64,000 bases of DNA from Chloroflexota bacterium (GTDB taxonomy: Bacteria; Chloroflexota; Anaerolineae; Aggregatilineales; Phototrophicaceae), in contig JACRPS010000014.1 in the NCBI GenBank assembly GCA_016223085.1, forward strand, positions 73,269-137,268, read 5' to 3'. How positions within the stretch are numbered: position 1 is the stretch's first letter; every line of letters begins with the position of its first letter. The position numbers were made by a program, and so were the translations under genes. Below the pieces are notes generated by a model. That model searched no databases. It worked only from the letters and a program-made list of their open reading frames with translations, and was not told where the DNA came from. This document shows, piece by piece, positions 1,227-49,026 of this stretch.

Positions 1227-1241
1227 GATTGCGGTTCCCGT

Positions 1242-2492: not shown

Positions 2493-2532
2493 GATGCTAT
2501 TCCTTGCCGGGCAGCCCCGGCAGTTTGATTCA

Positions 2533-2567
2533 TAAAAAGGGCGCACCCCGGTGAAAAAGCGCGCCCT
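2533..2567 (-). terminator. Terminator-like hairpin between sufD and sufS
   Basis: Minus strand AGGGCGC...GCGCCCT stem followed by TTTTAT; the loop is long. Confidence 0.4.
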
Positions 2568-2572
2568 GCCTG

Positions 2573-3919: not shown

Positions 3920-3960
3920 AGTTAATCTTCCTCCGGTATCAGATAGTCCTTTACGGCGGG

Positions 3961-3988
3961 GTAGGGACACGGCATGCCGTGTCCCTAC
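3961..3988. repeat. GTAG-type REP-like palindrome, copy 1
   Basis: GTAGGGACACGGCATGCCGTGTCCCTAC, a perfect 28-bp palindrome between sufB and sufD. Confidence 0.85.
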
Positions 3989-3996
3989 TACAGCGT

Positions 3997-5454: not shown

Positions 5455-5466
5455 GCTGTACTCCTG

Positions 5467-6240
5467 TTACTCCGTCGTGCTGTACTTTTCCCGAATCCAG
5501 TCGTAGCCGCGTTCTTCCAGATGCAGCGCCAGTTCCGGGCCGCCGCTTTCCACGATCTGGCCGTTCATCATGACATGCACAAACTGTGGCTGGATGTAGT
5601 TCAGAATGCGCTGGTAGTGGGTGATGACCAGCGCGCCCAGGTTCGGGCCGCGCAGCTTATTGACGCCTTCTGAAACGATGCGCAGCGCATCAATGTCCAG
5701 ACCAGAGTCAGTTTCGTCGAGGATGGCGATACGCGGTTCGAGCGTTGCCATCTGCAAAATCTCAGCGCGTTTCTTTTCGCCACCGCTAAAACCTTCGTTC
5801 AGGTAACGCCCGGCGAAGCTATGATCCATCTGGAGCAGGTCCATCTTGGACTTCAGCAGGCGACGGAATTCGGGGATCGAGATGCCCTTGCTGTCCGGGT
5901 CTTTGGCTTTCATCCGCGCGGTAATCGCCTGCCGCAGGAAGTTTGCCAACGTGACGCCGGGGATGGATACCGGATATTGGAACGCCAGGAACAGGCCGGC
6001 GCGGCTGCGTTCATCCGGTGTCATTTCCAGCAGGTCTTCGCCGTCAAAAATGATCTGGCCGCCCGTCACCTGATAAGCCGGGTGGCCGAGCAGAACGTTT
6101 GCCAGCGTGCTTTTGCCAGAGCCATTCGGCCCCATCAGGGCATGAACTTCACCCTGCTTGACGGTCAGGTTAACACCACGCAGGATTGGCTTGTCTTCGA
6201 CCGAAGCGTGTAGATTGCGGATTTCCAGTGCAGCGCCCAT
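5467..6240 (-). CDS. sufC: Fe-S cluster assembly ATPase SufC
   Basis: GPNGSGKST Walker [12 protein letters not shown] signature, [13 protein letters not shown]. Second ATG (6240) fits AGGAGG spacing. Confidence 0.97.
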
Positions 6241-6307
6241 GCGGGGCATCCTCCTATTTTTACGTCGGGTTAAATTATGATCGTACCCAGGGGTTTAAAC
6301 TGCGTCC

Positions 6308-25863: not shown

Positions 25864-26916
25864 TTAGCCTATGATGTTCAGCGGAATCACGTCGGCGGAT
25901 TGCAGCATGACGACGCTGATCCGCGCGGCGGTGTTCTCCGCCACTGCCCGGAATGCCTGGCCCGCGGGATTGTCGGGGTCGGTGACAACGATGGGACGGC
26001 CATAATCGCCGCCCTTGCGGACATCGGCGTTCAGCGGAATCCGCCCCAGGAACGGCACATTGCGCTCCTGCGCCAGGCTTTCGCCGCCGCCTTCGCCAAA
26101 GAAATCGCCGGCCATGTTCTCCACAATGCCCAGAATCGGCACGTTAAGCTGATCAAACATGGCAATGCTGCGCAGCGCGTCGGCCACTGCCACTTCCTGC
26201 GGCTGGGTGACGATGACTACGCCAGTCAGCGGGAACGACTGCGCCAGAGACAGCGGCGCGTCGCCCGTGCCGGGCGGCAGGTCTACGATCATGTAATCAA
26301 TTTCGCCCCAGTCCACGTCGGTGAAAAGCTGGCGAATTGCGCCGTGCAGCATCGGGCCACGCAAAATCAGCGGCTTGCTGGGGTCGGTCAGGAAGCCGGT
26401 GCTCATGATCTTCACGCCATAGGCTTCTAGCGGCAGCATCATATTGTTCGCTACTCTGGGGCGACCGCTGCCCAGGCCGGTCATCTGCGGCAGGTTTGGG
26501 TTCAGGATGTCGCCGTCAATCAAGCCGACTTTCGCGCCGGCTTCCGCCAGACCAACAGCCAGGTTGGTGGCGACGGTGCTTTTGCCGACGCCGCCTTTGC
26601 CGCTGGCGACGGCGATAATACTGCGCATCGGTACATCCAGCCGCCCGGTCATGCGGCGGTCGGTGGGCACCTGCGCGTCCCACTGGATGTCCAGTTGCTT
26701 GATCGCCGGCACTTTGCCGAGGACGGCGCGTTTGCAGGATTCAATAAACACATTCTTAAGCGGGCAGGCCGGGGTGGTCAGGACGATGGTAAAACGGGCA
26801 GTATCGCCGTCAATCGTCAGGTCGCGCACCATGTTCAGGCTGACAATATCCCGGTGCAGTTCCGGTTCAATGACGGTGCTCAGGGCACGCATCACCTGGT
26901 CTCGTACATCAGTCAT
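25864..26916 (-). CDS. apbC: Mrp/ApbC/NBP35-family P-loop ATPase with N-terminal DUF59 domain; C-terminal CxxC absent
   Basis: [10 protein letters not shown]...[28 protein letters not shown] followed directly by AGDFFGEGG. Confidence 0.92.
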
Positions 26917-27055: not shown

Positions 27056-27084
27056 GTAGGGGAGGGTCTCAGACCCTCCCCTAC
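27056..27084. repeat. GTAG-type REP-like palindrome, copy 7
   Basis: GTAGGGGAGGGTCT-C-AGACCCTCCCCTAC, perfect 14-bp arms, after nuoI. Confidence 0.85.
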
Positions 27085-27110: not shown

Positions 27111-27173
27111 TTACCCGCCCTTCTGCGCCTTCTTCTGGCGGATTTTCTCCAGCATCGCCTGCTTGTCAAACTT
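27111..27173 (-). repeat. C-terminal tail module B of NuoI ([20 protein letters not shown]-stop)
   Basis: Identical peptide to 30074..30136; 7 synonymous nucleotide differences. Confidence 0.95.
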
Positions 27174-28151
27174 GGGCTTGCCACCGCCGGCAGGCGTTGC
27201 ATCCGGGCCAGCATTGGCCTGCGTATCCACCACAACCGCGGGTTCCGCGACCTGTTCGGCAGGCGCTGCTTCCGCTACCGTCGTCGGTTCAGACGAGGGC
27301 ATGCCGCCGGCTGCTGCGCGCTTGCGGGCCAGCGCGGCTTCGCGCTTCGCCAGACGCGCGGCCTTTTCCGGGTCTTCGGGCAGCACGTCCTGGGTCTTTA
27401 CGTCACCGGCCACTTCGGCCTGCTTGGTCGAGCTGGCAACGGCAGCAGCCGGTGCCTTGTCGGCGATTTCATCCGCGTCGGTCACAGGCGCTTTGGGCCA
27501 CATGTTGTCAATCGTCGGCTCGACCGGCGTCTTGCCCTGCTTCTTCATCGCCTTAATCACGTCCGGGTGTTCCCAGCCGCCGCGCGCGATGGCTTCTTCC
27601 AGCGCTGTTGTAGGGGCGATGGTCTTCCAGTAGCTTAACGGCTTCGACAACCGTTCTTTGTCGTGGATGTGGTTACGGGTGCGGTCGTAGCTCGCCATCT
27701 CGTAATCGTGGTCCATCTTGATGGCGTCGAAGGGGCAGAACTCGGCGCAGAAGCCGCAGTTCATGCAGATGTCTATGTCAATGAAAAAGGCCGTCGGCTG
27801 CGGGATGGGGCGGCCTGTAGCCGGGTCGCTGCCGCGCACAATCCAGATACACTGCGGCGGGCACACCTTGGCGCAGATGCCGCAACTGGTACACCAGTCC
27901 TCGCCTGGGGCTTCGGGATGGTCGTCGTCGTTCACCACCAGGAACGGCGTGAAGCGGAAGCGCTCCGGCACGGCGATTTTCTCGTCAGGATACTGCACCG
28001 TAAACGCGCCCTGCGCCTTCAAGCCCTGGCGGATTTCAAAGTTATCCTGGCGGAAGTACTTGCGCCCGGCATACCGTAGATCGTCCACGTAGGTGTTGAA
28101 GAAGTGTTTGAAGGTTACAAAGAGGCCCTTGAGTATGCCCTGTCCGTACAT
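27111..28151 (-). CDS. nuoI: NADH-quinone oxidoreductase subunit I (2x[4Fe-4S]) with a long C-terminal extension
   Basis: TVQYPDEK...PERFR, CTSCGICAKVCP, CMNCGFCAEFCPFDAI; GAGGAG RBS before ATG 28151. Confidence 0.88.
   Translation of the reverse strand: MYGQGILKGLFVTFKHFFNTYVDDLRYAGRKYFRQDNFEIRQGLKAQGAFTVQYPDEKIAVPERFRFTPFLVVNDDDHPEAPGEDWCTSCGICAKVCPPQCIWIVRGSDPATGRPIPQPTAFFIDIDICMNCGFCAEFCPFDAIKMDHDYEMASYDRTRNHIHDKERLSKPLSYWKTIAPTTALEEAIARGGWEHPDVIKAMKKQGKTPVEPTIDNMWPKAPVTDADEIADKAPAAAVASSTKQAEVAGDVKTQDVLPEDPEKAARLAKREAALARKRAAAGGMPSSEPTTVAEAAPAEQVAEPAVVVDTQANAGPDATPAGGGKPKFDKQAMLEKIRQKKAQKGG
27312..27374 (-). repeat. Tail module A of NuoI ([21 protein letters not shown])
   Basis: Identical peptide to 30257..30319; 7 synonymous codon differences. 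Confidence 0.95.
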
Positions 28152-28167
28152 CGTCACTCCTCATTTT

Positions 28168-28195
28168 ATAGGGGCGCACGGCCATGCGCCCCTAC
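28168..28195. repeat. GTAG-type REP-like palindrome, copy 8
   Basis: Minus strand GTAGGGGCGCATGGCCGTGCGCCCCTAT between nuoCD and nuoI. Confidence 0.8.
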
Positions 28196-28211
28196 ATCTG
28201 TTATCCTCTAG

Positions 28212-30068
28212 TTACCGGTCCGTCTCACCCAGTACGATGTCAATGCTGCCCAGAATCGCCACCACGTCCGCGACCTTGTGGCCGACGCACATCGGCCCCA
28301 GCGGGGTCAGGTTGATGAAGCTGGGCGCGCGCACGTGATAGCGCCAGGGATTCTGCGGGCCTTTTTCGTCACCGGCGGACACGACGTAGAAGCCAAGTTC
28401 GCCCTTCGGATTTTCAACGCGGCCATAGGATTCGCCCAGCGGCACACGCGGCGTGTGCTGCTTGTTGCCCGCAAAAATCGGTTCGCCCTTGGTGCGTTCC
28501 AGACGCGGCAGAAGCTGCTTGAGGATGCGCACGCTCTCGCGCATTTCGTCCAGCCGAATCAGGTAACGGTCGTAGATGTCGCCGTTGTAGCGCACCGCCA
28601 CGTCGAAGTCGAGTTCTGGGTAGATGCTGTACGGGTCAGCGCGGCGTACGTCATAGGGCACGCCGCTGGCACGCAGCAGCGGGCCGGCGGCGCTGTAAGC
28701 AATCGCCATTTCCGGCGGGAGATAGCCCACGCCGATGGTGCGTGCCTTGATGATTTCGCTGTCGGTGAGGAACGTGTCCAGCTCATCAATGGAGCGCGGG
28801 ATGCGCTCGTTGATGAGTTCCGTCAGGTAATCCATCGTATCGTAGTCGCGCATCATGTCGTTTATCTTGGCCGCGACGCTGTGAATCCGTTCCGGCAGGT
28901 CCTTAAAGACGCCGCCGAAGCGCATGTAGTTGCACATCATACGGCTGCCGGCGGTCGCCTCGAAGAAGTCGAGAATTTTCTCACGTTCGGCAATGGCGTA
29001 CAGGGCGGGCGTAAAGAACGCGCCCAGGTCATTGAGCAGGAAACCGATTGCCCAGTAGTGATTCACGATACGGGTGAGTTCCGTCATCAATACGCGAATC
29101 ACCTCAGCGCGGTAAGTGGGCGGCTGGTAGCGCGTGCCTTTCGATAAAAGCTGCTCGACGGCCAGCGCGTAACCAAGGTTGTTGCCCATGCTGCTGATGT
29201 AGTCCAGCCGGTCGGTGAAGGGCATGTTGTGCAGGAAAGTGTTACGCTCGCCAATCTGCTCGTGATTGCGATGCAGATAACCCATCACTGGCTCCAGCGA
29301 CTCAATCGTTTCGCCGTTGAGCGTCACAATCATGCGGAACACGCCGTGCGTGCTGGGGTGGTGCGGCCCCATGTTCACGACCAGCCGGTCGGTTTTCAGC
29401 GCCTCATCACTGTCAAGTTCCTGTATGCTGACACCCAGGCCGAGTTCGCTGTACAGCGCCTCCTCGGACCTGTCGGTGAGTTTGCTCAGGTCGAAGTCAG
29501 CCGGGTACTGAACGTTTTTGCCATAGACGTTACGTTCCTCAGCGCGGTACACCCAACCGTCCGGCCAGCGGCTGTCAAACGGCTTGTGTTCCTCGGTGTA
29601 ATATGGCTCTTTCCAGTCCTTCCGCATCGGGTGGCCTTCAAAGCCTTCCCACAGCAGGATACGCTTCAGATTTGGATGGCCGGGGAAACGGATGCCGTAC
29701 AGGTCGTAGGCCTCGCGTTCCTGGAAGTCCGCGCCAGGCCACACGTCAATTAGCGATGGGATTTCAGCGTTGTCGCGCGGGGTTTGCGCCTTAAACACTA
29801 GGGCCGGGCCGCCTGCCGTGCGGTAGGCGTGATACACCATCTCCATGTGATCGGAGATGCCGTAATAGTCAACAGCAGTCGCGCTGGACAGGTAATCAAA
29901 CCCCAGCTCGTCACGCAGCATCCGCGCGACTTCGACCAGGTAGTTACGGTCCACAATGATGCCGCTGTAACCCTGACGGGTATCTTCCTGGATGTACTCC
30001 GGGAATTTTTGCTTCAGGGATGTTACGGCTGCGCTAACGTCAGTTACTTCAATCGGATAATCCACCAT
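28212..30068 (-). CDS. nuoCD: Fused NADH-quinone oxidoreductase subunit C/D
   Basis: [22 protein letters not shown]...GHPMRKD (NuoC); [33 protein letters not shown] (NuoD). No NiFe CxxC motifs. Confidence 0.95.
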
Positions 30069-30073
30069 GTTCC

Positions 30074-30136
30074 TTAACCACCCTTCTGCGCCTTTTTCTG
30101 GCGGATTTTTTCCAGCATCGCCTGTTTATCGAACTT
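30074..30136 (-). repeat. C-terminal tail module B of NuoB ([20 protein letters not shown]-stop)
   Basis: Identical peptide to the NuoI C-terminus. Confidence 0.95.
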
Positions 30137-31078
30137 GCCCTTCTGGCCTTCGCTGGCGGTTGCCGTTGCAACGGTTGTCTCAGCGGCAGCCGCCGGCTGC
30201 GCGGCGGGTTCGGGCGCGGTGGCAACCTGACCAGCAACGGTGGCCTCGCCACCCTGGGCAGCGCGCTTGCGGGCCAGCGCCGCTTCGCGCTTGGCAAGCC
30301 GCGCGGCCTTTTCGGGGTCATCGGTGGTCGCAGCCGCTGGCGCCGCAACTGCCGGTGCTACCGCCTTCTTGGCAATGGCCTTCGGCGTGTCGGTGACTTT
30401 AATCGTCGGCGGTAGCTCGCGCACGCCGTAGGGTTTGCCCGCAGCCGCCAGTTCCGCCTGGCGACGAATCAGGTCCATCTGGCGCGGGTCAATGACGTCC
30501 GGACCGAGGATCGGAATCGGTGTCGGCTCGGACGGACCAACGCCGTACCAGGGCACGTCGTCGTGATTCGCCAGCGACTGGCCATCAATCTTCTTTTGCA
30601 GCGCGATCAGGCCGTAGAGCAGCGCCTGTGGCGTGGGGGGACAACCGGGCACGTACACGTCTACCGGCAAATACTGGTCAATGCCAGAGACAACATTATA
30701 CCCTTCCTTAAACGGCCCGCCGCCGCTGGCACATGCGCCCATCGCCAGCACGTATTTCGGCTCCGGCATCTGGTTATACAGGCGGACAATCGGCACGACC
30801 ATCTTTTTTGTAACCGTGCCGGACACAATCATCAGGTCAGACTGGCGCGGGCTGGCACGCATCACCTCCATGCCGAAGCGCGATAGGTCATACCGGGATG
30901 CGGCGGTGGCGATCATTTCAATTGCGCAGCAGGCCAGCCCAAACAGCAGCGGCCACACGGACGACCGCCGACTCCAGTTATAGATTTTGCTCAGGCTGGT
31001 GATGGCGATATTGCCCTGCAAATCATCCGGGATAGGAAATTCAGTGGTGTGCAACTCGCGCAGGTCGAGCTTTTCCAT
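30074..31078 (-). CDS. nuoB: NADH-quinone oxidoreductase subunit B with a long C-terminal extension
   Basis: [52 protein letters not shown]. Confidence 0.95.
30257..30319 (-). repeat. Tail module A of NuoB ([21 protein letters not shown])
   Basis: Identical peptide to NuoI 27312..27374. Confidence 0.95.
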
Positions 31079-31284
31079 TAAGATGTGACCTCCTCATACC
31101 ACTCCCGCAGAATTTCGTTGAGGATGCCATCGTTAGCGAGGGCGGGGTCATCGGCGAAATCAGGGAGCGTGACGATATAATGAAACAACTGCTCCAAACC
31201 CATCGTATCCAAATCTGCATCAGGGTAGGTTTCCATCAAGCTCAGGACAATCTCGTAGCTTGATTCCCAATACAGCTTACACAC
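31078..31284 (-). CDS. iscX: IscX (YfhJ)-like Fe-S assembly protein
   Basis: [10 protein letters not shown]...YPD...L...I..LPDFADDP...N..IL..I...WYEE follows the IscX pattern; TAATG overlap with the nuoB start. Confidence 0.85.
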
Positions 31285-38741: not shown

Positions 38742-40700
38742 TTAACTGCCCGGCGTGGCTTCCGGGGTGGCCTCGACAGTTGCCTCAAGCGTTGCTTCGC
38801 CGGTGGTGGCTTCTGCCGTTGCTTCCGCCGTCGCCTCCGGCGCTGCGGTCGCTTCCGGTGTGGCTTCCGGCGCGGCAGCGCGGGCAAACGCTTCCAGCAG
38901 CGTGGCGCGCACGTCCGGCAGGTCGCCAAAGGACAGTCCCATCAGGCCGGCGTCCTGCACCAGAGTGTAATTCTGATCGCCGAAAGTGAACCACAGGAAG
39001 GACTGCACTTCAACGCGCCGCAGAGCCGCTTCGCTGACGATCAGCAGCAGCGAGTCGGTCAGTGGGTAACTGCCATCGCCGATGGTTTCCTCTGACGGCG
39101 CAACACAGCCGCTGCCGCCATCCACGCTGACGAGCTGAATGTTGGTCTGATTATTTTCCAGCACGCGCTGGTACCCATCCCAGTTCAGCAGCGCCAGTCC
39201 GCCTTCGACATTGGCAACCGCCGCCGCGCGGTACAGCGGGTCAGCGTTTACCTGAATGTCAGCGCGGATAGGCGTGTTCGCGCCGGTGGCGGCCAGCATC
39301 ATGATGTCGCTGTACAGACCGCCAACTGCCGGCGCAAACAGCGTCACCGCCGTTTCCGGGAACTGGTCGTTGACCTGATTCCAGGTGGTCACGGTGTTTT
39401 CACCCGCCGCGCCCCATACTGTCGCAAGCTGGTTGGTCGTCAGGCAGGCCAGATATGGACTGCTGCCATTGGCGACCAGAACGGTAGCACGGTGGCCGAG
39501 TTCGATGGGCAGCGGCGTGATGTTGTTGGCCTGGCAGTTCTGACGCTGTTCGTCGGTCAGGTCACCGTCTGCGATTACCATATCCACTTCGCCGTTGCAC
39601 AGGCGGCGGATGCCGGCAGGGTCGCCCTGCGGCTCAAAGGTGACGGTCATACCAGGGTAGGCGGCGCTGAACGCGCTGGTCACGCTGTCCAGATAGTCCT
39701 TGCCACTGGCCGAACCGGCGATTGTCACCGAACCGGAAATGTCCGCCGGAATGGTAAACTGGTCGCCACCCCGGCTGAACTGCGATTCCTGCGTCCCTTC
39801 CAGCACGGCGCGGTCCGTTTCGAGCATCCGATCTGATGGCGCTGTGAAGTTCTGCGCTTCCACCACCGCCGCTGCTTCGTCGCTCACGATGAAGTTGAGC
39901 GCATCGCGCAGGCCGGTTTTTTCCAGGCTGGCGCGGTTGACGTAAACAAACAGGCCGCTGCTGGCGCCATACTGGCGATTTTCGACCGCCAGCGCCGACG
40001 GTTCGGTGCAGCCAACAGCATCGTTGGTGTTCAGTTGCAGGATTTTGACCGCATCGCCGGCAGCCTGGGCCGCCGCGAGACTGACCGCGCCCACTGCGCC
40101 ATTGGTCTGGCTGACCGCCGTGATGGTGTCCGCATCGCTGGCCTGAACGGCGGCGTCAGCGCGGAGGGCGTCGCCGCCAACGAGGTTATCCAGAATGGCG
40201 TAGGCGCTGCTATCAGCCGGCGGCACGAAGACCGCGAGCGGGGTATTCGGGTAGTTCACATCCACCTGATTCCAGTTGGTGATGTGGCCCTGGGCGCTGG
40301 GCGCAAAGATGGCAGTCAGGTTGGCGGTTGTCAGGCACTGGATGAAGTCGGTCGCGGGGTTGGCGATAATCGCAACCACCTGATGGCCGATCAGCAGTTC
40401 GGCGAATTCCACGTTATTAGACTGGCAGGCGGCGCTTTCGTCAGTGCTGATCGGGCGGTTGGCGGTGACGACATCGTCCCGTCCCTGACAGAACTGGTCG
40501 AAGCCAGCGTTGGTGCCCATGACGGTCGAACTGAGGTTTACATCCGCGCCGCTGGCTTCCACCAGCGCCTCAAACAGCGGCGTGACCGTGCCGGAGCCAA
40601 CAACCGTTACCGCTCCACCGTCCTGCGCCAGCAGCAGGACAGGCACGAGGAGAAGCGCAAGCAGGACGAACAGCCCGACTCGGCGCTGAAATACTGTCAT
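38742..40700 (-). CDS. Secreted protein with two tandem PstS-like periplasmic binding domains and an EAT-repeat tail
   Basis: Signal peptide; VGSGTV...GFDQFCQG...NRPI...CLTT..L...TNWNQV repeated in degenerate form; C-terminal PEATPEAT repeats. Confidence 0.78.
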   Translation of the reverse strand: MTVFQRRVGLFVLLALLLVPVLLLAQDGGAVTVVGSGTVTPLFEALVEASGADVNLSSTVMGTNAGFDQFCQGRDDVVTANRPISTDESAACQSNNVEFAELLIGHQVVAIIANPATDFIQCLTTANLTAIFAPSAQGHITNWNQVDVNYPNTPLAVFVPPADSSAYAILDNLVGGDALRADAAVQASDADTITAVSQTNGAVGAVSLAAAQAAGDAVKILQLNTNDAVGCTEPSALAVENRQYGASSGLFVYVNRASLEKTGLRDALNFIVSDEAAAVVEAQNFTAPSDRMLETDRAVLEGTQESQFSRGGDQFTIPADISGSVTIAGSASGKDYLDSVTSAFSAAYPGMTVTFEPQGDPAGIRRLCNGEVDMVIADGDLTDEQRQNCQANNITPLPIELGHRATVLVANGSSPYLACLTTNQLATVWGAAGENTVTTWNQVNDQFPETAVTLFAPAVGGLYSDIMMLAATGANTPIRADIQVNADPLYRAAAVANVEGGLALLNWDGYQRVLENNQTNIQLVSVDGGSGCVAPSEETIGDGSYPLTDSLLLIVSEAALRRVEVQSFLWFTFGDQNYTLVQDAGLMGLSFGDLPDVRATLLEAFARAAAPEATPEATAAPEATAEATAEATTGEATLEATVEATPEATPGS

Positions 40701-40831
40701 AGGTCGCTCCTTAAAGAAGGGGGTAAGGCGTTCCACTTTTTGCCGGGACGATTGTACTCTCGACTGCTTAATTGTCCAGCCAAACTTTTGCGGTATCATC
40801 AGTAGGGAGTACAGTTGCCGGAGTAAGATAG

Positions 40832-41257
40832 ATGGATGTTTCGGAACCGTCGGTGTATGAGATTGCGGGTGGGGACCCCGCGTTTCAAAAGCTGGTAGAC
40901 GTGTTTTATGCCAGAGTGGAAGCCGACCCGGTGCTGCGCCCGCTGTTCCCTGTCGATTTGGAACCGGGCAAACGCTGGCAGTTCCTCTTTTTGACGCAGT
41001 TTTTTGGCGGGCCGCCGCGTTATGCGGCGGAGCGCGGGCATCCGCGCCTGCGGCAGCGCCATTTCCCGTTTCCGATTGACCAGCAGGCGCGCGACCGCTG
41101 GCTGGCGCACATGCTGGCTGCAATTGACGAGACCGCTATTCCCGAACCGGCGCGGAGCGAGATGCGAACGTACTTCGAGCGCGCGTCCGCGTTTATGATA
41201 AACGCCGACGTTGAACCCGACAATCTGATGAAATGGCAGCCACCCAAACAATCATGA
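40832..41257 (+). CDS. Group II truncated hemoglobin
   Basis: YEIAGG...LVDVFYARV..DPVLRPLF...FLTQFFGGP..Y...GHPRLRQRH...RWL. Confidence 0.9.
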   Translation: MDVSEPSVYEIAGGDPAFQKLVDVFYARVEADPVLRPLFPVDLEPGKRWQFLFLTQFFGGPPRYAAERGHPRLRQRHFPFPIDQQARDRWLAHMLAAIDETAIPEPARSEMRTYFERASAFMINADVEPDNLMKWQPPKQS

Positions 41258-41679
41258 GCCGCCGAACTGCTTCCACAAAACCGCATAAGCAGGCCGTGCC
41301 GCCACCGGTGAACGTTGTCCGTGACCCTGTCACGCTGCGGCTGGTTCGCGGCGTGCTGAAACTGCCGCGCCCGCTGCGGATGATGCTGGTGGCCGTGTTT
41401 GCTCTGGCGGTGACGTTTGCCGTCAGCCCCGTGATTGACGCAGTATACATCCGCTACTTTTTCAGCGAAACCACACGTGTGGTGCCGTCGCTGGTGGCGG
41501 CTGCTGCCGGACTGGTGATGTATGCGTTGGGCTGGGTGGTGTTGATCGGCACGGTTGGCGAAACGCCGCCGGAGCGGATTCTGGTTTTGTGGTACAGTGG
41601 GCTGGGGCTGCTGGTGGTGGCGCTGGTCATCATCATGCTGGCCGCCGGCTGGATGAGCGGACTCGCACCAACCATGTAA
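41254..41679 (+). CDS. Membrane protein with about three TM helices
   Basis: Hydrophobic segments; ATGA overlap with the globin stop. Confidence 0.7.
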   Translation: MSRRTASTKPHKQAVPPPVNVVRDPVTLRLVRGVLKLPRPLRMMLVAVFALAVTFAVSPVIDAVYIRYFFSETTRVVPSLVAAAAGLVMYALGWVVLIGTVGETPPERILVLWYSGLGLLVVALVIIMLAAGWMSGLAPTM

Positions 41680-41689
41680 GGACAAAATC

Positions 41690-42268
41690 ATGAAGACTGC
41701 TGTCGTGTTTGCCGCATGTGGTTTAAGTTTGTTTGTACTGGCAGGCTGTGGTCAGCAAAGCGACGCCCCGCTGCCGACGCTGATGCCGACTGCGCTGCCG
41801 GCAGAAGCGGCAACGGCCACGACCATACCCACCCAGGCGCCCACCAGCACGCCGCTGGTGCGGGCAACTCTGCCGCCGACCTGGACACCATCGCCCGCGT
41901 CGGCCCAGGAACAGCCGACGGAGACACCTTTGACCGCGAATCAGGAGGTGAATATTCCGGCGGAGAAGCCCACGCTGGAAGCCTGCGGCCCGTTCCGCGA
42001 AGACCGGTCGCGCTACAATCCGCAGTTCGTGGCGGGGACCGATGTCATGGTAGCGTGGGTGCCGGCAACCGGCGCTCCCAGTTATCGAGTGAACGTGGTT
42101 GATGAATCCGGCGAGGAATTTTTTGCCGATTACACCGCCGACAGCACGTATACCTTCAAAGCAGACCTGTTCGAGCGCGGCAAACGCTACGGCTGGAACG
42201 TTTACCCGATGGACGCGCTCGGCCAGCAAATGTGTATCAGTGTAGGCGGGGAGTTGTTTCCGCAGTAA
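41690..42268 (+). CDS. Lipoprotein with Pro/Thr linker and C-terminal beta-sandwich-like domain
   Basis: LAGC lipobox; AAGGA RBS. Confidence 0.75.
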   Translation: MKTAVVFAACGLSLFVLAGCGQQSDAPLPTLMPTALPAEAATATTIPTQAPTSTPLVRATLPPTWTPSPASAQEQPTETPLTANQEVNIPAEKPTLEACGPFREDRSRYNPQFVAGTDVMVAWVPATGAPSYRVNVVDESGEEFFADYTADSTYTFKADLFERGKRYGWNVYPMDALGQQMCISVGGELFPQ

Positions 42269-42275
42269 GCAGGAA

Positions 42276-42301
42276 CGGGCATGAGGCGGATACCATGCCC
42301 G
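42276..42301. terminator. Hairpin between convergent genes
   Basis: CGGGCATG-N10-CATGCCCG; no U-tract. Confidence 0.35.
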
Positions 42302-42313
42302 GATTGGTTTCGG

Positions 42314-42610
42314 TCAACCACCGCCGGCGAACAGCGCGCAGAAGTTCATCGAGGATGGATTCGTGGCGCAGCTTGAATACAACAGCACACCGCCAACGCA
42401 GGCGGCGCAGGCAAGCAGCAGTACCAGACAGCCACACCACATCCCCGGCCCGCCGCCGATGATGGTCAGTACCAGTCCGACCAGGTTAAAGACAGTCGAG
42501 CCGATAAACTGGAAGCCAAAAAACAGCAGCAGAACAACCACACATAAAAAGACGAGGACGATGCTGACGAGCAGCAGCGCGCCAATATCCATATTTTGCA
42601 GAAACTGCAT
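42314..42610 (-). CDS. Small Cys-rich membrane protein
   Basis: Two or three hydrophobic helices; WCGC...CAAC cysteines. Confidence 0.6.
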   Translation of the reverse strand: MQFLQNMDIGALLLVSIVLVFLCVVVLLLFFGFQFIGSTVFNLVGLVLTIIGGGPGMWCGCLVLLLACAACVGGVLLYSSCATNPSSMNFCALFAGGG

Positions 42611-42662
42611 GGTGATGAACCTTTGTGCGAAGCCGGCATTGCTCCTAGCTTAGTCGGTTCAG

Positions 42663-43088
42663 TTATGGTTGGCAACTGCCGCTGAAGGATTCCGCCGCCG
42701 TCCACGCATCATCAGGGCCGATACGGGTGTAACATTCGCAGAAGGTGGCCGGGTCGCCGCTGCCCGCCCACAGGAAAAAACGGGTGTCGGTCTGCACGCA
42801 CAGCGCTGTATCCCCTTCGACGTTGTGCAGCGACGGCCAGGAAATGGCAATGCCGCGCACCCGCGCCTCGTTGATGAGCCAGATACGCGCCTCCTGATTC
42901 GGCGCGCCGCCCAGCATGACGGTGATCTGGCCCTGCGTCGCCAGCGTAAACAGCAGGCACGGGCTGACCATGACGACCGCCCACAGCAGCAGCCCCAGGC
43001 CGCAGCCAATGCGCCGGAGAGGGCTGCGTTTCGCCCGTGGCGCGGACTGTGTTTCCGTCACTGGCGGCTGTACTTCAGCCATTGTCAT
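42663..43088 (-). CDS. Hypothetical single-pass membrane protein
   Basis: One TM helix and a Cys-containing extracytoplasmic domain; overlaps the NUDIX gene end. Confidence 0.6.
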   Translation of the reverse strand: MTMAEVQPPVTETQSAPRAKRSPLRRIGCGLGLLLWAVVMVSPCLLFTLATQGQITVMLGGAPNQEARIWLINEARVRGIAISWPSLHNVEGDTALCVQTDTRFFLWAGSGDPATFCECYTRIGPDDAWTAAESFSGSCQP

Positions 43089-43596
43089 TCTCGCTGAATT
43101 GAAACTGCATCACATCGTTAGTGTCGTAGCTGACGTGGACAAACAGCGGCGGGTCGGTGTCGCGCATGGCGAGCACTCGTGGCAGGATGATAGGCAAATC
43201 TTCGACCAGATCGTAGCGGCTGATCTCGTCACACGGTATCCAGTGCAGCGTACCTTCGTCATTGGCGGTCACGTCGCGGCGGTCGCTGACGGCGGTGAAC
43301 ACAAACAGCATGATGCCGGTCGCCTGTCCCGCATCAATGTTGTACACTGCCCGCAGCCATAGGTCGCGTACCGTCAGCCCGGTTTCTTCGGCAATCTCAC
43401 GGCGCGCGCTGCCGTAGGGGTCTTCGTTGCGTTCGATGTGGCCGCCGAGGCCGTTGTAGCGGTTGGGAAAGATACGCTTATGCGACGCGCGTTTCATCAA
43501 TAGCACGTCACCGCCGTTGGTGACAAAACACAGCGTACGCGGGATTACCAGCCAGCGGCCCTGGGTGGCGTCCGCGCCCTGTTCCTGAGCGCCCAT
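43075..43596 (-). CDS. NUDIX hydrolase, possibly nucleotide-sanitising (MutT/MTH1-like)
   Basis: GLGGHIERNEDPYGSARREIAEETGL Nudix box; EGTLHW. Confidence 0.88.
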   Translation of the reverse strand: MGAQEQGADATQGRWLVIPRTLCFVTNGGDVLLMKRASHKRIFPNRYNGLGGHIERNEDPYGSARREIAEETGLTVRDLWLRAVYNIDAGQATGIMLFVFTAVSDRRDVTANDEGTLHWIPCDEISRYDLVEDLPIILPRVLAMRDTDPPLFVHVSYDTNDVMQFQFSENDNG

Positions 43597-43704
43597 TGCT
43601 TGACCTTTCTCTTGCTCTCTCCGCGCGGGTCAGGATTGCCCTTCACGCCGGTTCGTGATACCCTTCTGCCGTTGTTCACACCCCGTCAGACAGGACAATA
43701 TTCG

Positions 43705-44523
43705 ATGACTCTGGCTCGACATGACGCGCCGCCACCTGATCTGCGTATCCTGCCTACCGACAGCTTGCAGCCCCATGAAGAACACGATTCGCAGCGGGCG
43801 ATGCCATTGATCGAACGGCTGCGGAACGAGCAGTATGTCATTAACCCGCCAATTGTTGCGCAGATGGACGCCAATCACTACGTTATCCTCGACGGCGCGA
43901 ACCGTTTCTACGCATTTTCTCATCTCCATTATCCGCACATTCTGGTGCAGATTGCCAACTATGACAGCGGCTACGTTGAACTGAATACGTGGCGGCACAT
44001 CGTCGGGCGCTGGGAGAAAGAACAGTTCCTCGACCGGCTGCACCGGCTGCCGCAGGTGGCGGTGATCGAAGGTTATGACGAGAACGCCATCGCCCATGTG
44101 CTGTGCCGAGATGGGCAAACGCTGGCGCTGCGTGCTGGCGACCAGCCGCGCGAACGTAATGCCGCGCTTTGCGATGTGGTGCGGGTCTACCAGCGGAATG
44201 CCGTGCTGCACCGCACGGCGCTGACCGAGCCGACCGACATCTGGCCGCTGTACCCGGAAGCGATTGCGCTGGTGGTGTTCCCCAGCTACCAACCGGCGGA
44301 CATCCTGGCGGCGGCACAGCAGCGCGCCTTCCTGCCGCCCGGCATCAGCCGGCATATCATTCACGGTCGGGCGCTGCGGGTGAACTACCCGATTGACGCG
44401 CTGCGCGATACAAACGTTTCGCTTGAAGAAAAAAATGCGCGGCTTCGCCAGTGGATGCAGGACAAGCTGGCCCGGCGGCACGTGCGGTATTATGCGGAAG
44501 CGACCTACCAGTTTGATGAATAG
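43705..44523 (+). CDS. ParB/Srx-fold protein resembling SbnI/SerK free serine kinases
   Basis: LQPHE, NPPIV, YVILDGANR, NTWRH, LPPGISRHIIHGRAL and C-terminal VRYYAEATYQFDE track SbnI as recalled along its length; no HTH. Confidence 0.7.
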   Translation: MTLARHDAPPPDLRILPTDSLQPHEEHDSQRAMPLIERLRNEQYVINPPIVAQMDANHYVILDGANRFYAFSHLHYPHILVQIANYDSGYVELNTWRHIVGRWEKEQFLDRLHRLPQVAVIEGYDENAIAHVLCRDGQTLALRAGDQPRERNAALCDVVRVYQRNAVLHRTALTEPTDIWPLYPEAIALVVFPSYQPADILAAAQQRAFLPPGISRHIIHGRALRVNYPIDALRDTNVSLEEKNARLRQWMQDKLARRHVRYYAEATYQFDE

Positions 44524-44532
44524 GGGAGTGGG

Positions 44533-44970
44533 ATGGAACAGACGGTTGAGCAGGCATTATCGCAGGCTAATCTGGTCAGCGACGGTACGGAATATGCGCT
44601 GGTGAAACTGCCGCCCAAAGCGATTACGGCTGCCGCGGGGGTGATCGCCGCTATCGGCGAACCGTTTTGCGCTCTGATCGCCGACAGGAATGAGGTGAGC
44701 CTGCTGATACCGGCGGAAGCGGTGCAGGATTTTGTCAGCCATCTGCCGGGGCATACGCTGGCGGAAACACGCTACCGGTTGATTACGCTCGACGTGGCGC
44801 TGGAACTGTCACTGGTGGGCTTTATGGCGGCGGTCAGTCGGGCGCTGGCGGATGCCGGCGTTTCGATACTACCGTATGCTGCCTTCACCCGCGATCACCT
44901 GCTGGTGCCGGCGGCGCAGTTTGAGCTTGCCATGAAAACGCTGCAACAGCTAAAATCCGCGCGTCCATAA
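44533..44970 (+). CDS. Tandem ACT-domain protein (CASTOR/ACT_7-like)
   Basis: RLITLDVALELSLVGFMAAVSRALADAGVSI...F.RDHLLVP. Confidence 0.8.
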   Translation: MEQTVEQALSQANLVSDGTEYALVKLPPKAITAAAGVIAAIGEPFCALIADRNEVSLLIPAEAVQDFVSHLPGHTLAETRYRLITLDVALELSLVGFMAAVSRALADAGVSILPYAAFTRDHLLVPAAQFELAMKTLQQLKSARP

Positions 44971-44983
44971 GCCGGGGTAGACG

Positions 44984-45343
44984 ATGGAAATCCCGATTTT
45001 TCCGAGCGACCGCCCGCTGCAACCGAAAGACCGGATTCGGATTGAAGACCTGGAGGTAACGCCGTACCGTGACCGCTTCCGGGTGCACATCCACATTCAG
45101 GTGACGCCGTTCCGGGAGCGCCCGAATCTGCTGCTCGTCGCCCGCGATGAGAACAACCGCATCGTCAGCGAACTGAATATCATCGAGACGATGCATCACG
45201 ACATGGAATTTACGATGCACCTGCGCGGTGTGGCCGACCCCGCCGGGGAGTACATGCTGGCGGCGGACCTGTTTTATGAAACCCGCAACCCGCCGCAGGA
45301 CCGGCGCGAAGTTCGCTTTGAAATCCCCGCAGTGGCGCAGTAG
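44984..45343 (+). CDS. Hypothetical beta-rich protein
   Basis: Clean ORF inside the operon with typical codon usage. Confidence 0.65.
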   Translation: MEIPIFPSDRPLQPKDRIRIEDLEVTPYRDRFRVHIHIQVTPFRERPNLLLVARDENNRIVSELNIIETMHHDMEFTMHLRGVADPAGEYMLAADLFYETRNPPQDRREVRFEIPAVAQ

Positions 45344-45352
45344 GCGGGCACG

Positions 45353-45907
45353 ATGCGCCTGTGTTTGACTGAAGCTCAGGGGCACGCACTGGCGCGATAT
45401 GCGCGGGACGCCGCGCCGCAGGAGGCGTGCGGGTTGTTGGCCGGTGTCAGGGAGCAGGTTGAGGAAGTCATTCCTATCCCCAATGCTGCCGCCGACCCGG
45501 TTCACCATTACCGTCTGGATGATGTCATCTTCGCCCGCACCCTGATGCAGCTTGAAGCGCGCGGCCTGGAACTGCTGGCGATCTATCACTCGCACCCAAA
45601 CGGAGACCCCATCCCCTCGCCAACCGACGTCCGGCAGGCGACCTTTCCCGACACACCTTACGTCATTATTGGCCTGTATAATGGTGAAGCGCGTCTCGCG
45701 GCGTGGCGGGTGCGATACGGCGAAGTGACGCCAGTGGAGGTATACGTTGGTTTGCCGGGGACAGCGCCAGCCGTCCGCGAAGCAAAGCTGTCGCGAGCGC
45801 AAATCATTGCAATCTTAATCAGCGCGATTCTGGCATTTGCCTTTATGATTATTCTATCACTGTCGCTGTTGCCGCCCGCGCCGGTGATTGTAACCCCATT
45901 ACCGTGA
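45353..45907 (+). CDS. JAMM/MPN+ (M67, Mec+-like) metallopeptidase with a C-terminal TM helix
   Basis: PQEACGLL and YHSHP...PSPTD motifs intact; C-terminal IIAILISAILAFAFMIILSLSLL. Confidence 0.85.
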   Translation: MRLCLTEAQGHALARYARDAAPQEACGLLAGVREQVEEVIPIPNAAADPVHHYRLDDVIFARTLMQLEARGLELLAIYHSHPNGDPIPSPTDVRQATFPDTPYVIIGLYNGEARLAAWRVRYGEVTPVEVYVGLPGTAPAVREAKLSRAQIIAILISAILAFAFMIILSLSLLPPAPVIVTPLP

Positions 45908-45920
45908 AAGAAGTGTCCTG

Positions 45921-46736
45921 ATGATGGTTGTGCTGATTGCCGTGATTGGCATTCTGGCCGGAGGGCTTGTCAACCTCCTGGCCGACGATTTGCCGCATTA
46001 CCGCCGCCCGCGCCTGCCACGCTACCCGGACGGTACACCGCGACCGGTGGTCGCGTGGCTGGGGATAACGGCATTCTTGGCGGGCAAGCGCGCCGCGCCG
46101 AACGGGGCAAAACTCTCATGGCGGTATCCGCTGGCAGAACTGGCGACGGCCTTCTTCATGTTGCTCACCTATGCGCTGAAGCACGATGATCCTGACGTCA
46201 GCGACGTACAACTGGTGTTCTGGCTGGTGTACATGGCGATTTTTGTGCTTATCACCGTCGTGGACATCGAACACCGGCTGATTCTGTTCGCCGTGATTAT
46301 CCCTTCGTGCGCGCTGGCAATTCTGGACGCGGTGGTGACACCGACGCGGCACGACCCCAACTTGCAGCGGGCGCTGCTGGGCGGGGCGCTTGGCTTCGGC
46401 ACGTTTTTCCTGCTGTACCTCGGCGGCTTTGTGTATACGTATGTTGCCCGCCAGTTGCAGGGGCGGGACATTACCGACGTGGCGTTTGGCTACGGCGACG
46501 TGATGATGGCAACCCTCAGCGGCCTGATTCTGGGGCTGGAAGCAGTTATCTTCGCCATGTTTATCACCGTGTTCCTGGGCGCGGTTGGGGCGCTGGCGTA
46601 CATCGTCGGCAGCCGGATGGCCGGGCGGGGTTACGCGCTGTTCACGGCGCTGCCTTACGGGCCGTACATTGTCGCCGGGACGGTGATTATGCTGCTGTAC
46701 GCGGAGCAGGTGCGGTTCTTCCTGGCGGGATATTGA
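45921..46736 (+). CDS. A24 prepilin peptidase-like aspartic protease
   Basis: SWRYPLAEL, VVDIEHRLI (first Asp), FGYGD (GxGD), ALPYGPYI. N-terminal CxxC pairs missing. Confidence 0.85.
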   Translation: MMVVLIAVIGILAGGLVNLLADDLPHYRRPRLPRYPDGTPRPVVAWLGITAFLAGKRAAPNGAKLSWRYPLAELATAFFMLLTYALKHDDPDVSDVQLVFWLVYMAIFVLITVVDIEHRLILFAVIIPSCALAILDAVVTPTRHDPNLQRALLGGALGFGTFFLLYLGGFVYTYVARQLQGRDITDVAFGYGDVMMATLSGLILGLEAVIFAMFITVFLGAVGALAYIVGSRMAGRGYALFTALPYGPYIVAGTVIMLLYAEQVRFFLAGY

Positions 46737-46738
46737 TC

Positions 46739-46766
46739 GTAGGAACACGATATATCGTGTCCCTAC
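46739..46766. repeat. GTAG-type REP-like palindrome, copy 10
   Basis: GTAGGAACACGATATATCGTGTCCCTAC; its end supplies the mnmA TAG stop codon. Confidence 0.8.
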
Positions 46767-47857
46767 CCTGAACGTTCGATAATTCCCCCACCCAGCACGG
46801 TGTCACCGTCGTAGACCACTGCGCCCTGACCGGGTGTGATGTCCCGCAGCGGCTCGTCAAACTGCACCTGCATTCGCTCGCCGGGCAGGGGTTCAACCCA
46901 GGCGGGCACAGGCTGCGCCTTGTAGCGGATTTTCACCTCGGCGCGGAATGGTTCGGATGGCGTTTCGCCGCTGACCCAGTTTACACGGTGCGCCGTTAGC
47001 GTATCGCTGCCAAGTTCGTCCGCTGTGCCGACAACCAGCGCGTTCCGATACGGGTTCATGGCAATCACGTATAACGGTTCAGGGCTGTTGACGCCTAACC
47101 CCTTACGCTGGCCGATGGTGTAATTCGCCAGTCCGGTGTGCTGTCCTAACACGTCGCCGTTCTTACGCACAATCGGGCCGGGCTGTAGGATGTCCGGCGC
47201 GTAATCGCCCAGGAAGCGGCGGTAGTTGTTATCCCCGATGAAACACAAATCCTGGCTGTCCTTCTTGCTGGCGGTTGGCAGGCCAAAACGCGCTGCGATT
47301 TCCCGCACCTGCGGCTTGGTGTACTCGCCGACGGGGAACAGGGTATGTTTAAGCTGCTGCTGTCCCAGCACACTGAGGACGTAGCTCTGGTCTTTGCGCT
47401 CGTCCAGCCCTTTCTTCAACACGTAGCGTCCGCTTGCGGCCTGCGACACGCGCGCGTAATGGCCGGTCGCCAGGTATTCGGCATCCAGCGCCAGCGCGTT
47501 TTGCAGCAGGAAGTTAAAGCGGATATGCCGGTTGCATTCCAGGCACGGATTGGGCGTCACGCCCTGGCGGTGCTGGTCAATGAAGAACTCGACAATCGTA
47601 TGGCGAAAGACATCCTTGGTGTCCAGCACGTAAAACGGAATGCCGAGTTTGGCAGCGATCCGGCGCGCGTCGGCCATCTGGTCGGGCGTGCAGCAGCGGT
47701 TATGTACCCCGCCACCGAAGGTTTCCTCCGACCACAGGCGCATCATCACGCCGACAACGTTGTAACCCTGTTCCAGCAGCAGCGCCGCCGCCACCGAACT
47801 GTCCACGCCGCCACTCATCGCTACCACGACGCGTACATCTGCGTTATTGCTCATCAC
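46763..47857 (-). CDS. mnmA: tRNA-specific 2-thiouridylase
   Basis: AMSGGVDSS, TPNPCLECN, ATGHY, KDQSY, DSQDLCF, YTIGQRKGLG, TPGQ. Confidence 0.97.
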   Translation of the reverse strand: MMSNNADVRVVVAMSGGVDSSVAAALLLEQGYNVVGVMMRLWSEETFGGGVHNRCCTPDQMADARRIAAKLGIPFYVLDTKDVFRHTIVEFFIDQHRQGVTPNPCLECNRHIRFNFLLQNALALDAEYLATGHYARVSQAASGRYVLKKGLDERKDQSYVLSVLGQQQLKHTLFPVGEYTKPQVREIAARFGLPTASKKDSQDLCFIGDNNYRRFLGDYAPDILQPGPIVRKNGDVLGQHTGLANYTIGQRKGLGVNSPEPLYVIAMNPYRNALVVGTADELGSDTLTAHRVNWVSGETPSEPFRAEVKIRYKAQPVPAWVEPLPGERMQVQFDEPLRDITPGQGAVVYDGDTVLGGGIIERSG

Positions 47858-49026
47858 ACGATCTCACGATTCAACCGGCGAACTTTTTCCACCGCTTCCA
47901 CCAGCGTTTGCACAGCATAATCCACATCTTCGGTCGTAGTCTGCCGCCCGACGGTCAGGCGCAGGCTGCTGCCGGCGGTCTGGCGGTCGTAGCCCAGCGC
48001 CAGCAGGACGCCGGACGGCTCCGGGTTGCCGGTCTTGCAGGCGGAGGCACTGCTGGCGGCCACGCCCTTCAGATCGAGGTGCATCAGCAGGGCATTGCCG
48101 TCCACACCGTCAAAGACAAAGCTGGCGTGAGAGGGCAGCCGGTTCACCGGATGGCCGGTCAACTGCGACCCCGGCACGCGGTTCAGCACACCGTCAATCA
48201 GACTGTCGCGCATCTGGCAGTAGTGCGTGGTATAAGCGTCGAACTCGTCGTAAGCGATTGCCAGCGCCTTCGCCAGCCCAACGATCAGCGGCGTGTTGTG
48301 CGTGCCGGAGCGCCGTCCGGCTTCGTGGCTGCCGCCGCTCTGGCTGGGCACAAGTTCGATGCCGTTCCGCACGTACAGCGCGCCCACGCCCTTCGGCCCA
48401 TAAAACTTGTGTGCTGAGAGACTCAACATATCCACCCCGAGTTTTTGCACGTCGAGCGTTAGCTGCCCGGCGGCCTGCACCGCGTCTGTATGGAACCACG
48501 CACCGCGCTCGTGCGCCAGCGCCGCAAGCTGCGGTATGGGCTGGATGCTGCCAACTTCGTTGTTGGCGTACATCACGCTGGCGACGGTTGTTCCCGGTCG
48601 GCAGGCGTTGGCGAAGTCCTCGACATCCACCACGCCAGTTTTATCCACCGAAATAATCGTGCGCTCGAAGCCCATCAGGTCAGCCATCTGCTGCACCGTT
48701 TTACCGACCGCCGGGTGCTCCAGCGGTGTCGTAACCAGGTGCAGCCCGCGCCCCTGCTGCCGTGCCGTCCAGCCCGCACCGCGCATCGCAAGGTTATCGC
48801 TTTCCGAGCCGCAGCTTGTGAACACGATCTCCGACGGCTGGCAGTTTAAAATGCGCGCCACCGTTTCCCGCGCCGTTTCCACCGCATTTTCCGCGTCGCG
48901 CCCGAAGCGGTGCGCCGACGACGGATTGCCGTATACGTCGCTGAAATACGGCAGCATCGCCTCAACCACGCGCGGATCGGTAGGCGTGGTGGCGGAATGA
49001 TCGAGATAGACGGTACGCGCGGGCAT
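47854..49026 (-). CDS. iscS: Cysteine desulfurase, IscS/NifS class I
   Basis: YLDHSATTP, HTDAVQ, SAHKFYGPKG, SSASAC; overlaps the mnmA start. Confidence 0.92.
   Translation of the reverse strand: MPARTVYLDHSATTPTDPRVVEAMLPYFSDVYGNPSSAHRFGRDAENAVETARETVARILNCQPSEIVFTSCGSESDNLAMRGAGWTARQQGRGLHLVTTPLEHPAVGKTVQQMADLMGFERTIISVDKTGVVDVEDFANACRPGTTVASVMYANNEVGSIQPIPQLAALAHERGAWFHTDAVQAAGQLTLDVQKLGVDMLSLSAHKFYGPKGVGALYVRNGIELVPSQSGGSHEAGRRSGTHNTPLIVGLAKALAIAYDEFDAYTTHYCQMRDSLIDGVLNRVPGSQLTGHPVNRLPSHASFVFDGVDGNALLMHLDLKGVAASSASACKTGNPEPSGVLLALGYDRQTAGSSLRLTVGRQTTTEDVDYAVQTLVEAVEKVRRLNREIV

Follow-up and report, generated by a model that had tools for sequence, protein, structure and literature searches.

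The iscX-nuoB-nuoCD-nuoI cluster

The subject of this work is a cluster of five co-oriented genes in a 64,000-nucleotide stretch of DNA from a Chloroflexota bacterium of the class Anaerolineae (Aggregatilineales; Phototrophicaceae). This whole stretch, which we call the window, covers positions 73269-137268 of contig C35 in a 6.0-Mb assembly of 37 contigs, and all coordinates below are window positions unless a contig is named. The cluster encodes the small protein IscX, the quinone-module (Q-module) subunits NuoB, NuoCD and NuoI of complex I, and the P-loop protein ApbC. Its features are as follows, with lengths in amino acids (aa).

31078..31284, minus strand: iscX, 68 aa, the first gene of the operon (PF04384, TIGR03412)
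30074..31078, minus strand: nuoB, 334 aa (PF01058, TIGR01957 and NF005012, above cutoffs)
28212..30068, minus strand: fused nuoCD, 618 aa, starting 5 nt past nuoB (PF00329 plus PF00346, NF004739)
27111..28157, minus strand: nuoI, 348 aa, starting 54 nt past nuoCD (TIGR01971 below its cutoff; Fer4 families match)
27056..27084, minus strand: terminator-like hairpin with a 13-bp stem and 9 G-C pairs, 27 nt past the nuoI stop, a pattern match only
25864..26916, minus strand: apbC/mrp, 350 aa, starting 194 nt past nuoI (PF01883 plus PF10609)

A first-pass annotation, made from the sequence, had described these as Q-module genes standing apart from the rest of complex I. The genes lie where it placed them, and reading the locus by open reading frames (ORFs) and domains finds no nuoA, nuoH, nuoE-G or nuoJ-N in the cluster. 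The iscX and nuoB genes overlap in the string TAATG, as had been reported; the TAA stop of the first and the ATG start of the second can be read directly from the sequence. It is also correct that apbC follows nuoI, with the refinement that the putative terminator-like hairpin stands between the two.

The three subunits retain the residues expected of a Q-module. The core of NuoB, approximately residues 1-195, holds the ligands of cluster N2 in the motifs CC, GAC and GCPP, and all four N2 cysteines, including that in PGCPP, align with the canonical NuoB encoded on contig C12 of the same genome; the TIGR01957 score is 227 bits (cutoff 143). The NuoD part of the fusion keeps the HHPSTHG loop, the RLDY/DY motif and the C-terminal DIVLGETDR, has no [NiFe] cysteines, and scores 398 bits with the NuoD model NF004739 (cutoff 360) against 319 bits with the NdhH model. 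NuoI carries two CxxCxxCxxxCP [4Fe-4S] motifs, CTSCGICAKVCP and CMNCGFCAEFCP, and matches TIGR01971 with E=1.3e-26 and 92.6 bits, which is under the cutoff of 113. A hydrogenase module was considered and rejected, as the window NuoD is without the [NiFe] cysteines found in its paralogue on contig C30.

The closest named relatives of NuoCD come from Phototrophicaceae, Aggregatilineales, Candidatus (Ca.) Flexifilum, Anaerolineales, Thermoflexus and similar groups, which places the organism in the class Anaerolineae, and the fusion of nuoC with nuoD is kept in 30 relatives. Compared with the canonical C12 NuoD, the window NuoD is missing a loop of roughly 22 aa (MEAVIHHFKLWTEGF...); the C30 hydrogenase subunit is missing it too. 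The consensus of the aligned relatives suggests that this deletion is common to them. A 17-aa insertion is also seen in the window NuoD. In eight sampled genomes of other Chloroflexota classes, the NuoCD homologue lies within open frames of 785-1068 aa, possibly larger fusions of the NuoBCD kind; IscX is absent from all eight.

Other complex I loci and the detached membrane arm

An inventory of the assembly by tblastn and ORF maps identified four relevant loci besides the window:

C12:223545-242565: canonical nuoA-N operon of 14 genes, with separate nuoC and nuoD
C30:50048-57781: group 4 [NiFe] membrane-bound hydrogenase operon, RICGIC and DPCFSC motifs intact
C4:36490-46782: orphan membrane arm nuoA-H-J-K-L-M-M-N, without B, C, D or I
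C8: Mrp-like pair

The window module is therefore the third B/D set in the genome, which rules out that these are the only nuoBCDI copies and that they complete one ordinary split operon. The window subunits are just 29-54% identical to the C12 copies. That a membrane arm would be encoded elsewhere had been anticipated, and the C4 locus provides one: the module is on C35 and the arm on C4, and neither has an NADH-input module (N-module) linked to it. As C4 is the only arm without B, C, D and I genes of its own, the window module is the only one available to it.

The C4 locus has the gene content described for 2M complex I, with two nuoM genes between nuoL and nuoN (nuoL 39265-41712, nuoM 41773-43356, second nuoM 43481-45265, nuoN 45265-46782, all on C4). 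A further mark of this type is a NuoL amphipathic helix long enough to span a fourth pump subunit; the C4 NuoL has 815 aa, but the canonical C12 NuoL, with 808 aa, is long as well. According to McGonigle et al. (PMC7117926), who attribute the layout to Chadwick, Hemp, Fischer & Orphan 2018, ISME J, the 2M complex I of Chloroflexi has nuoLM1M2N, with nuoBCDI apart from the operon and nuoCD fused. The main text of Hug et al. 2013 does not describe a split layout. Taken together, the canonical C12 operon, the C30 hydrogenase and the orphan C4 arm identify the window cluster as a detached 2M Q-module, and its layout, as far as that citing account goes, is the ordinary, published one for Anaerolineae and not novel.

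The phylum was sampled with 401 Chloroflexota genomes, evenly drawn from 218 genera, of which 45 belong to the Anaerolineae. The nuoC and nuoD genes of the module are fused or adjacent in 35 of these 45, and two further genomes match NuoC/NuoD in another or an interrupted form. In all 37 of them NuoH is matched on another contig or 44-560 kb away, and none of the eight class genomes without the module has NuoH. The split of the Q-module from its arm is class-wide and ancestral to the class.

Two of the other loci have features of their own. In the C12 operon NuoH, NuoJ and NuoL are unusually long, at 567, 448 and 808 aa respectively, and roughly 1.3 kb separates nuoL from nuoM. In the C30 operon, B-, C-, D-, H- and I-like subunits are encoded together with a pair of antiporter-like subunits, one small membrane protein and a maturation protease.

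IscX and its linkage to nuoB

The first gene of the operon encodes a true IscX by family and by fold. It matches TIGR03412 with 50.8 bits (cutoff 40.4) and PF04384 with E=3e-14 and 53.8 bits (cutoff 25), and is approximately 40% identical to Escherichia coli IscX. An AlphaFold2 model (predicted local distance difference test, pLDDT, 94.5) has as its top Foldseek matches 1UJ8 and 2BZT, with a template-modelling (TM) score of 0.87 and a root-mean-square deviation of 1.0-1.3 A. The protein is strongly acidic, with a net charge of about -13, and its alignment with E. coli IscX shows the acidic DF-DDP and YPD-D motifs in both. Its setting is not that of an isc operon, as the gene heads a nuoB-CD-I operon instead. 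The best 120 matches of a database search with this protein are all IscX of the Anaerolineae type, a set that leaves other phyla out of view. A 112-aa metagenome protein is an IscX homologue in which the C-terminal two-thirds is partly duplicated in tandem.

The linkage of iscX to nuoB is strongly conserved. IscX occurs in 27 of the 401 Chloroflexota genomes, every one of them from the Anaerolineae and every one with a single copy. By coordinate comparison all 27 copies lie directly upstream of nuoB, 650-900 bp upstream of nuoCD, and none of the 401 genomes has iscX at any other locus. The eight class genomes that are without any complex I genes are without iscX too, and it is equally missing from all 53 genomes of other Chloroflexota classes that have the same NuoD subfamily, fused or not.

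Translational coupling is conserved as well. In 58 of 75 loci the iscX stop overlaps the nuoB start or directly adjoins it, with ATGA in 30, TAATG or TGATG in 21 and a gap of zero in 7. The gene order iscX-nuoB-nuoCD-nuoI is kept throughout the 18 same-genus genomes and in the majority of genomes of the taxonomic order. Of 80 named Anaerolineae loci compared, iscX is directly upstream of nuoB in approximately 50, spanning Aggregatilineales, Anaerolineales, Thermoflexus, Ca. Leptofilum and Ca. Flexifilum; the loci without it include Bellilinea-like and some other Anaerolineales.

Among the papers listed by full-text searches, none ties IscX to nuoB, complex I or one of its accessory subunits, Nqo15, Chloroflexi or Anaerolineae. 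The link between iscX and nuoB thus appears to be undescribed, with the qualification that the source study on the 2M complex enters here through the paper that cites it.

ApbC and the surrounding Fe-S biogenesis genes

The first-pass annotation had also proposed that two dedicated Fe-S factors, IscX and ApbC, bracket the module. Half of this proposal stands, as IscX is specific to the module. ApbC is a general protein that has lost its CxxC motif and lies behind the hairpin. It consists of an N-terminal DUF59 (PF01883) and a NUBPL-type P-loop ATPase domain (PF10609, E=6.8e-85), and scores 263 bits with NF008669, under the cutoff of 348. The CxxC holds the bridging cluster in this family; in place of ENMSxxxCxxCG the window protein has ENMAGDFFG; its only cysteines are at 51 and 61, both in DUF59, which leaves the ATPase domain free of cysteine. 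This loss is almost class-wide (loci L031-L110), the motif being either deleted (ENMxGDFFG) or replaced (ENMSYLELPDG), and among the class loci examined CPHC is kept in only two, both from Thermoflexus.

Of the 45 class genomes 44 have an ApbC homologue, and seven of the 44 are without complex I; its position near the module is kept in approximately 29 of 35. A tblastn search found no close paralogue elsewhere in the window genome. Being the sole homologue, present in seven genomes without complex I and separated by the hairpin, ApbC is a general DUF59-Mrp protein at a conserved neighbouring position and not a dedicated factor. This is a useful caution: a housekeeping gene can be linked to the module across a class, so conserved gene neighbourhood alone can mislead.

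Two further Fe-S loci are found in the window:

825-6249, minus strand: complete sufC-B-D-S-U operon; no other Fe-S scaffold system was found in the genome
47854-49026: IscS/NifS-type class I cysteine desulfurase, 390 aa, the only class I desulfurase in the genome

The remark that this genome shows SUF is borne out, and a genome search found no IscU paralogue besides SufU and no ISC scaffold. The desulfurase gene, which had been named as the IscS for a binding test with IscX, is indeed present, yet it is paired with mnmA rather than with an ISC scaffold. It overlaps the mnmA start (pair 46763-49026), and this pairing suggests a role in tRNA thiolation rather than general Fe-S assembly.

In Anaerolineales, erpA and a gene for an ArsR/SufR-like regulator of approximately 205 aa with C-terminal cysteines are divergent from (iscX-)nuoB (loci L063, L072, L075, L084 and L087-L110); the erpA call is based on NF010147 with 119 bits (cutoff 117). 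The window genome has its own erpA-regulator pair outside the window, at C35:261091-262240, about 157 kb from the module. The module thus belongs to a loose and ancestral neighbourhood of Fe-S biogenesis genes, of which iscX alone is specific to it.

The twin tails of NuoB and NuoI

NuoB and NuoI both extend well beyond their conserved cores. The NuoB tail (residues 196-334, 139 aa) is basic and rich in Ala and Pro, and the NuoI tail (residues 201-348, 148 aa) is also rich in Ala and Pro and carries the same two motifs. That the two tails are shared had been noticed before, and at the DNA level the segments that encode the motifs are 87-90% identical:

30258..30324, minus strand: NuoB tail motif 1, a direct DNA repeat with NuoI 27313-27379, 90% identical
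30074..30142, minus strand: NuoB tail motif 2 plus stop, a direct DNA repeat with NuoI 27111-27179, 87% identical

The final 20 residues of the two proteins are identical and nearly all differences between the motif DNA of nuoB and nuoI are synonymous, which indicates purifying selection on the motifs and not a fresh duplication. A motif search of the genome found them on no protein other than NuoB and NuoI. The tail is not a widespread domain either: phmmer with 85 aa of the NuoB tail against 1.84 billion representatives returned 3 matches only, all of them fragments of closely similar NuoB tails.

In 16 of 18 same-genus loci, as in three very closely related named metagenome-assembled genomes, NuoB and NuoI both end in a KFDKxAMLxxIRxxK helix. 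Motif 1 is variable among same-genus loci, and other families of the order have short or unrelated tails. The twin tails are therefore restricted to the genus and its closest relatives. Within a genome the terminal motifs have an identity of 0.86, against 0.80 between genomes (permutation p 0.0006, uncorrected for phylogeny). Recent gene conversion of the tails is unlikely, as the DNA of the two tails within one genome (identity 0.78) is not more alike than that of NuoI with NuoI between genomes, and the differences are synonymous.

The tails are long and probably disordered. In the AlphaFold2 model of NuoB, tail helices at 255-275 and 318-333 reach a pLDDT of 70-91 and the linkers fall below 50. 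The same basic helix ends both tails; in the simplest reading, it presumably contacts one common partner or surface. As a speculation, this could be anionic lipid of the membrane, the acidic protein IscX, or an electron donor of acidic type, for instance ferredoxin.

Interpretation and alternative explanations

We consider it probable (roughly 0.85) that the cluster is the detached Q-module operon of a second, NuoEFG-less 2M complex I, with an IscX that acts on this module. The window operon would contribute cluster N2 in NuoB, the quinone site in NuoCD and two [4Fe-4S] clusters in NuoI, and these subunits would assemble onto the NuoA-H-J-K-L-M-M-N arm of C4:36490-46782. The product would be a quinone reductase with a fourth antiporter-like subunit. 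IscX would act on the Q-module alone, either by helping in iron handling or maturation of the three NuoB and NuoI clusters or as a small stoichiometric accessory subunit. Its strict co-distribution with the module, its fixed position and its translational coupling across orders argue for such an action, and a maturation factor or small subunit specific to the Q-module is the most likely role of IscX. The identity and order of the genes, their joint distribution and the coupling are direct observations; the physical assembly with the C4 arm and the roles of IscX and of the tails are inferred.

Several observations weigh against this reading. The assembly with the C4 arm is reached by elimination and co-occurrence. 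Nine sampled class genomes hold the module without any iscX, so IscX is not indispensable and can be dispensed with in some lineages. A fusion of IscX to NuoB, looked for in two long open frames from two further genomes, was found in neither; both frames are upstream read-through. The AlphaFold2 model of NuoB has a low overall quality, with a mean pLDDT of 55, which weakens what can be said on the structure of the tails.

The first-pass annotation had gone further and proposed an exchangeable module, in which one B-CD-I set, matured by factors of its own, docks on several arms in turn. The module is indeed encoded apart from any arm, and the genome does have several antiporter-type arms (C12, C30, C4 and the Mrp-like pair on C8). 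However, C12 and C30 each have their own B, C, D and I, which leaves exactly one arm in the genome without these subunits, and the low identity of the window subunits to the C12 copies (29-54%) also speaks against interchange. The module and a separate NuoH occur together, with class genomes that have the module having such a NuoH and the eight that do not having none. We regard an exchangeable module as very unlikely. It is extremely improbable that NuoB, NuoCD and NuoI form a stand-alone soluble oxidoreductase that works without a membrane arm. Although the operon itself holds no membrane gene, the quinone-site residues of NuoD and the N2 ligands of NuoB are retained, the genome has an orphan arm that includes nuoA and nuoH and is found together with the module, and the same arrangement has been published as 2M complex I, in the account of it given in PMC7117926.

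A further alternative concerns IscX rather than the module. IscX could be a cell-wide Fe-S or iron factor that only happens to lie here, without a particular tie to complex I. E. coli IscX is a general modulator of ISC, the neighbouring apbC proves to be general despite its conserved linkage, and nine class genomes do without IscX. Against this stand the results that none of the eight module-less class genomes has IscX and that all 27 copies adjoin nuoB, that the stop/start overlap is kept across orders, that IscX is absent from all other Chloroflexota classes sampled, and that the genome offers no ISC scaffold to modulate. On balance, a general role for IscX seems unlikely, and a role on the Q-module is the reading we retain.

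A more daring version of the Q-module reading can be put forward, tentatively. The IscX-fold protein might have moved from the ISC machinery to become a stoichiometric subunit or resident iron chaperone of 2M complex I, with the twin basic tails, in the genus and its closest relatives, serving as flexible arms that capture the acidic IscX or an acidic donor such as ferredoxin. If true, it would follow Nqo15 of Thermus, with its frataxin fold, as the second case of its kind, of independent origin.

The basic picture of the complex is unchanged by this work, as the operon itself has the layout published for the class, in the form in which that layout is cited. The new points are the class-specific, position-fixed and translationally coupled recruitment of IscX and the twin tails of the genus and its closest relatives. 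IscX, a small protein always encoded with NuoB and translationally coupled to it, makes a concrete candidate for a factor in 2M assembly or for a further 2M subunit. If this proves true, IscX, whose role in E. coli is debated, would gain a single defined client in organisms without ISC.

Comparison with known systems

The system closest to that of the window genome is the Chloroflexi 2M complex I as cited in PMC7117926, with which it shares the second nuoM, the separate nuoBCDI, the fused nuoCD and the lack of linked nuoEFG. The window genome also has a canonical 14-subunit operon alongside. Unlike the window locus, the 2M complex as summarised in that paper comes with no mention of iscX, of a CxxC-less apbC neighbour or of twin tails.

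E. coli IscX (YfhJ) is of the same family and fold as the window protein, is acidic and has a similar size. Its gene ends the iscRSUA-hscBA-fdx-iscX operon, whereas the window iscX lies outside any isc operon and is coupled to nuoB. The window genome has SUF only, plus the IscS-like/MnmA pair, and its iscX is co-distributed with the Q-module. In E. coli, IscX and CyaY compete for one site on IscS. Loss of CyaY lowers the amount of complex I in E. coli by approximately a third (PMC1959517).

Nqo15 of Thermus thermophilus is a frataxin-fold subunit of complex I that is found only in Thermus and close relatives, e.g. Deinococcus (PMC1959517). Together with the effect of CyaY, this precedent makes both roles for IscX, maturation helper and subunit, plausible. 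Like the window IscX, Nqo15 is a small protein with an iron-chaperone type of fold, a link to the peripheral arm and a distribution confined to one lineage (PMC1959517). The differences are that Nqo15 has a frataxin fold and the window protein an IscX fold, and that the Nqo15 gene lies outside the nqo cluster while iscX is within the operon. Physical association has been shown for Nqo15; for the window IscX it is deduced from gene context.

The window ApbC shares its PF10609 P-loop domain with NUBPL/Ind1 and HCF101, which are Fe-S carriers of the Mrp/ApbC family for complex I and photosystem I. HCF101 has an N-terminal DUF59 and is not known to carry a CxxC; the window ApbC likewise has a DUF59 and no CxxC. 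Unlike Ind1, the window ApbC is the sole homologue in its genome and is kept in genomes without complex I, so it is not specific to complex I.

Finally, the cyanobacterial and plastid NDH-1 has extra small subunits for docking of the electron donor. As outlined in PMC3144371, this complex has 11 subunits and no N-module, and so resembles the proposed window complex in having a NuoEFG-less core and lineage-specific small proteins at the peripheral arm. Homologues of NdhS, NdhV or NdhO did not turn up in the window genome, where no search was aimed at them. The two are distinguished by the NuoD part of the window protein, which favours NuoD models over the NdhH model (398 versus 319 bits).

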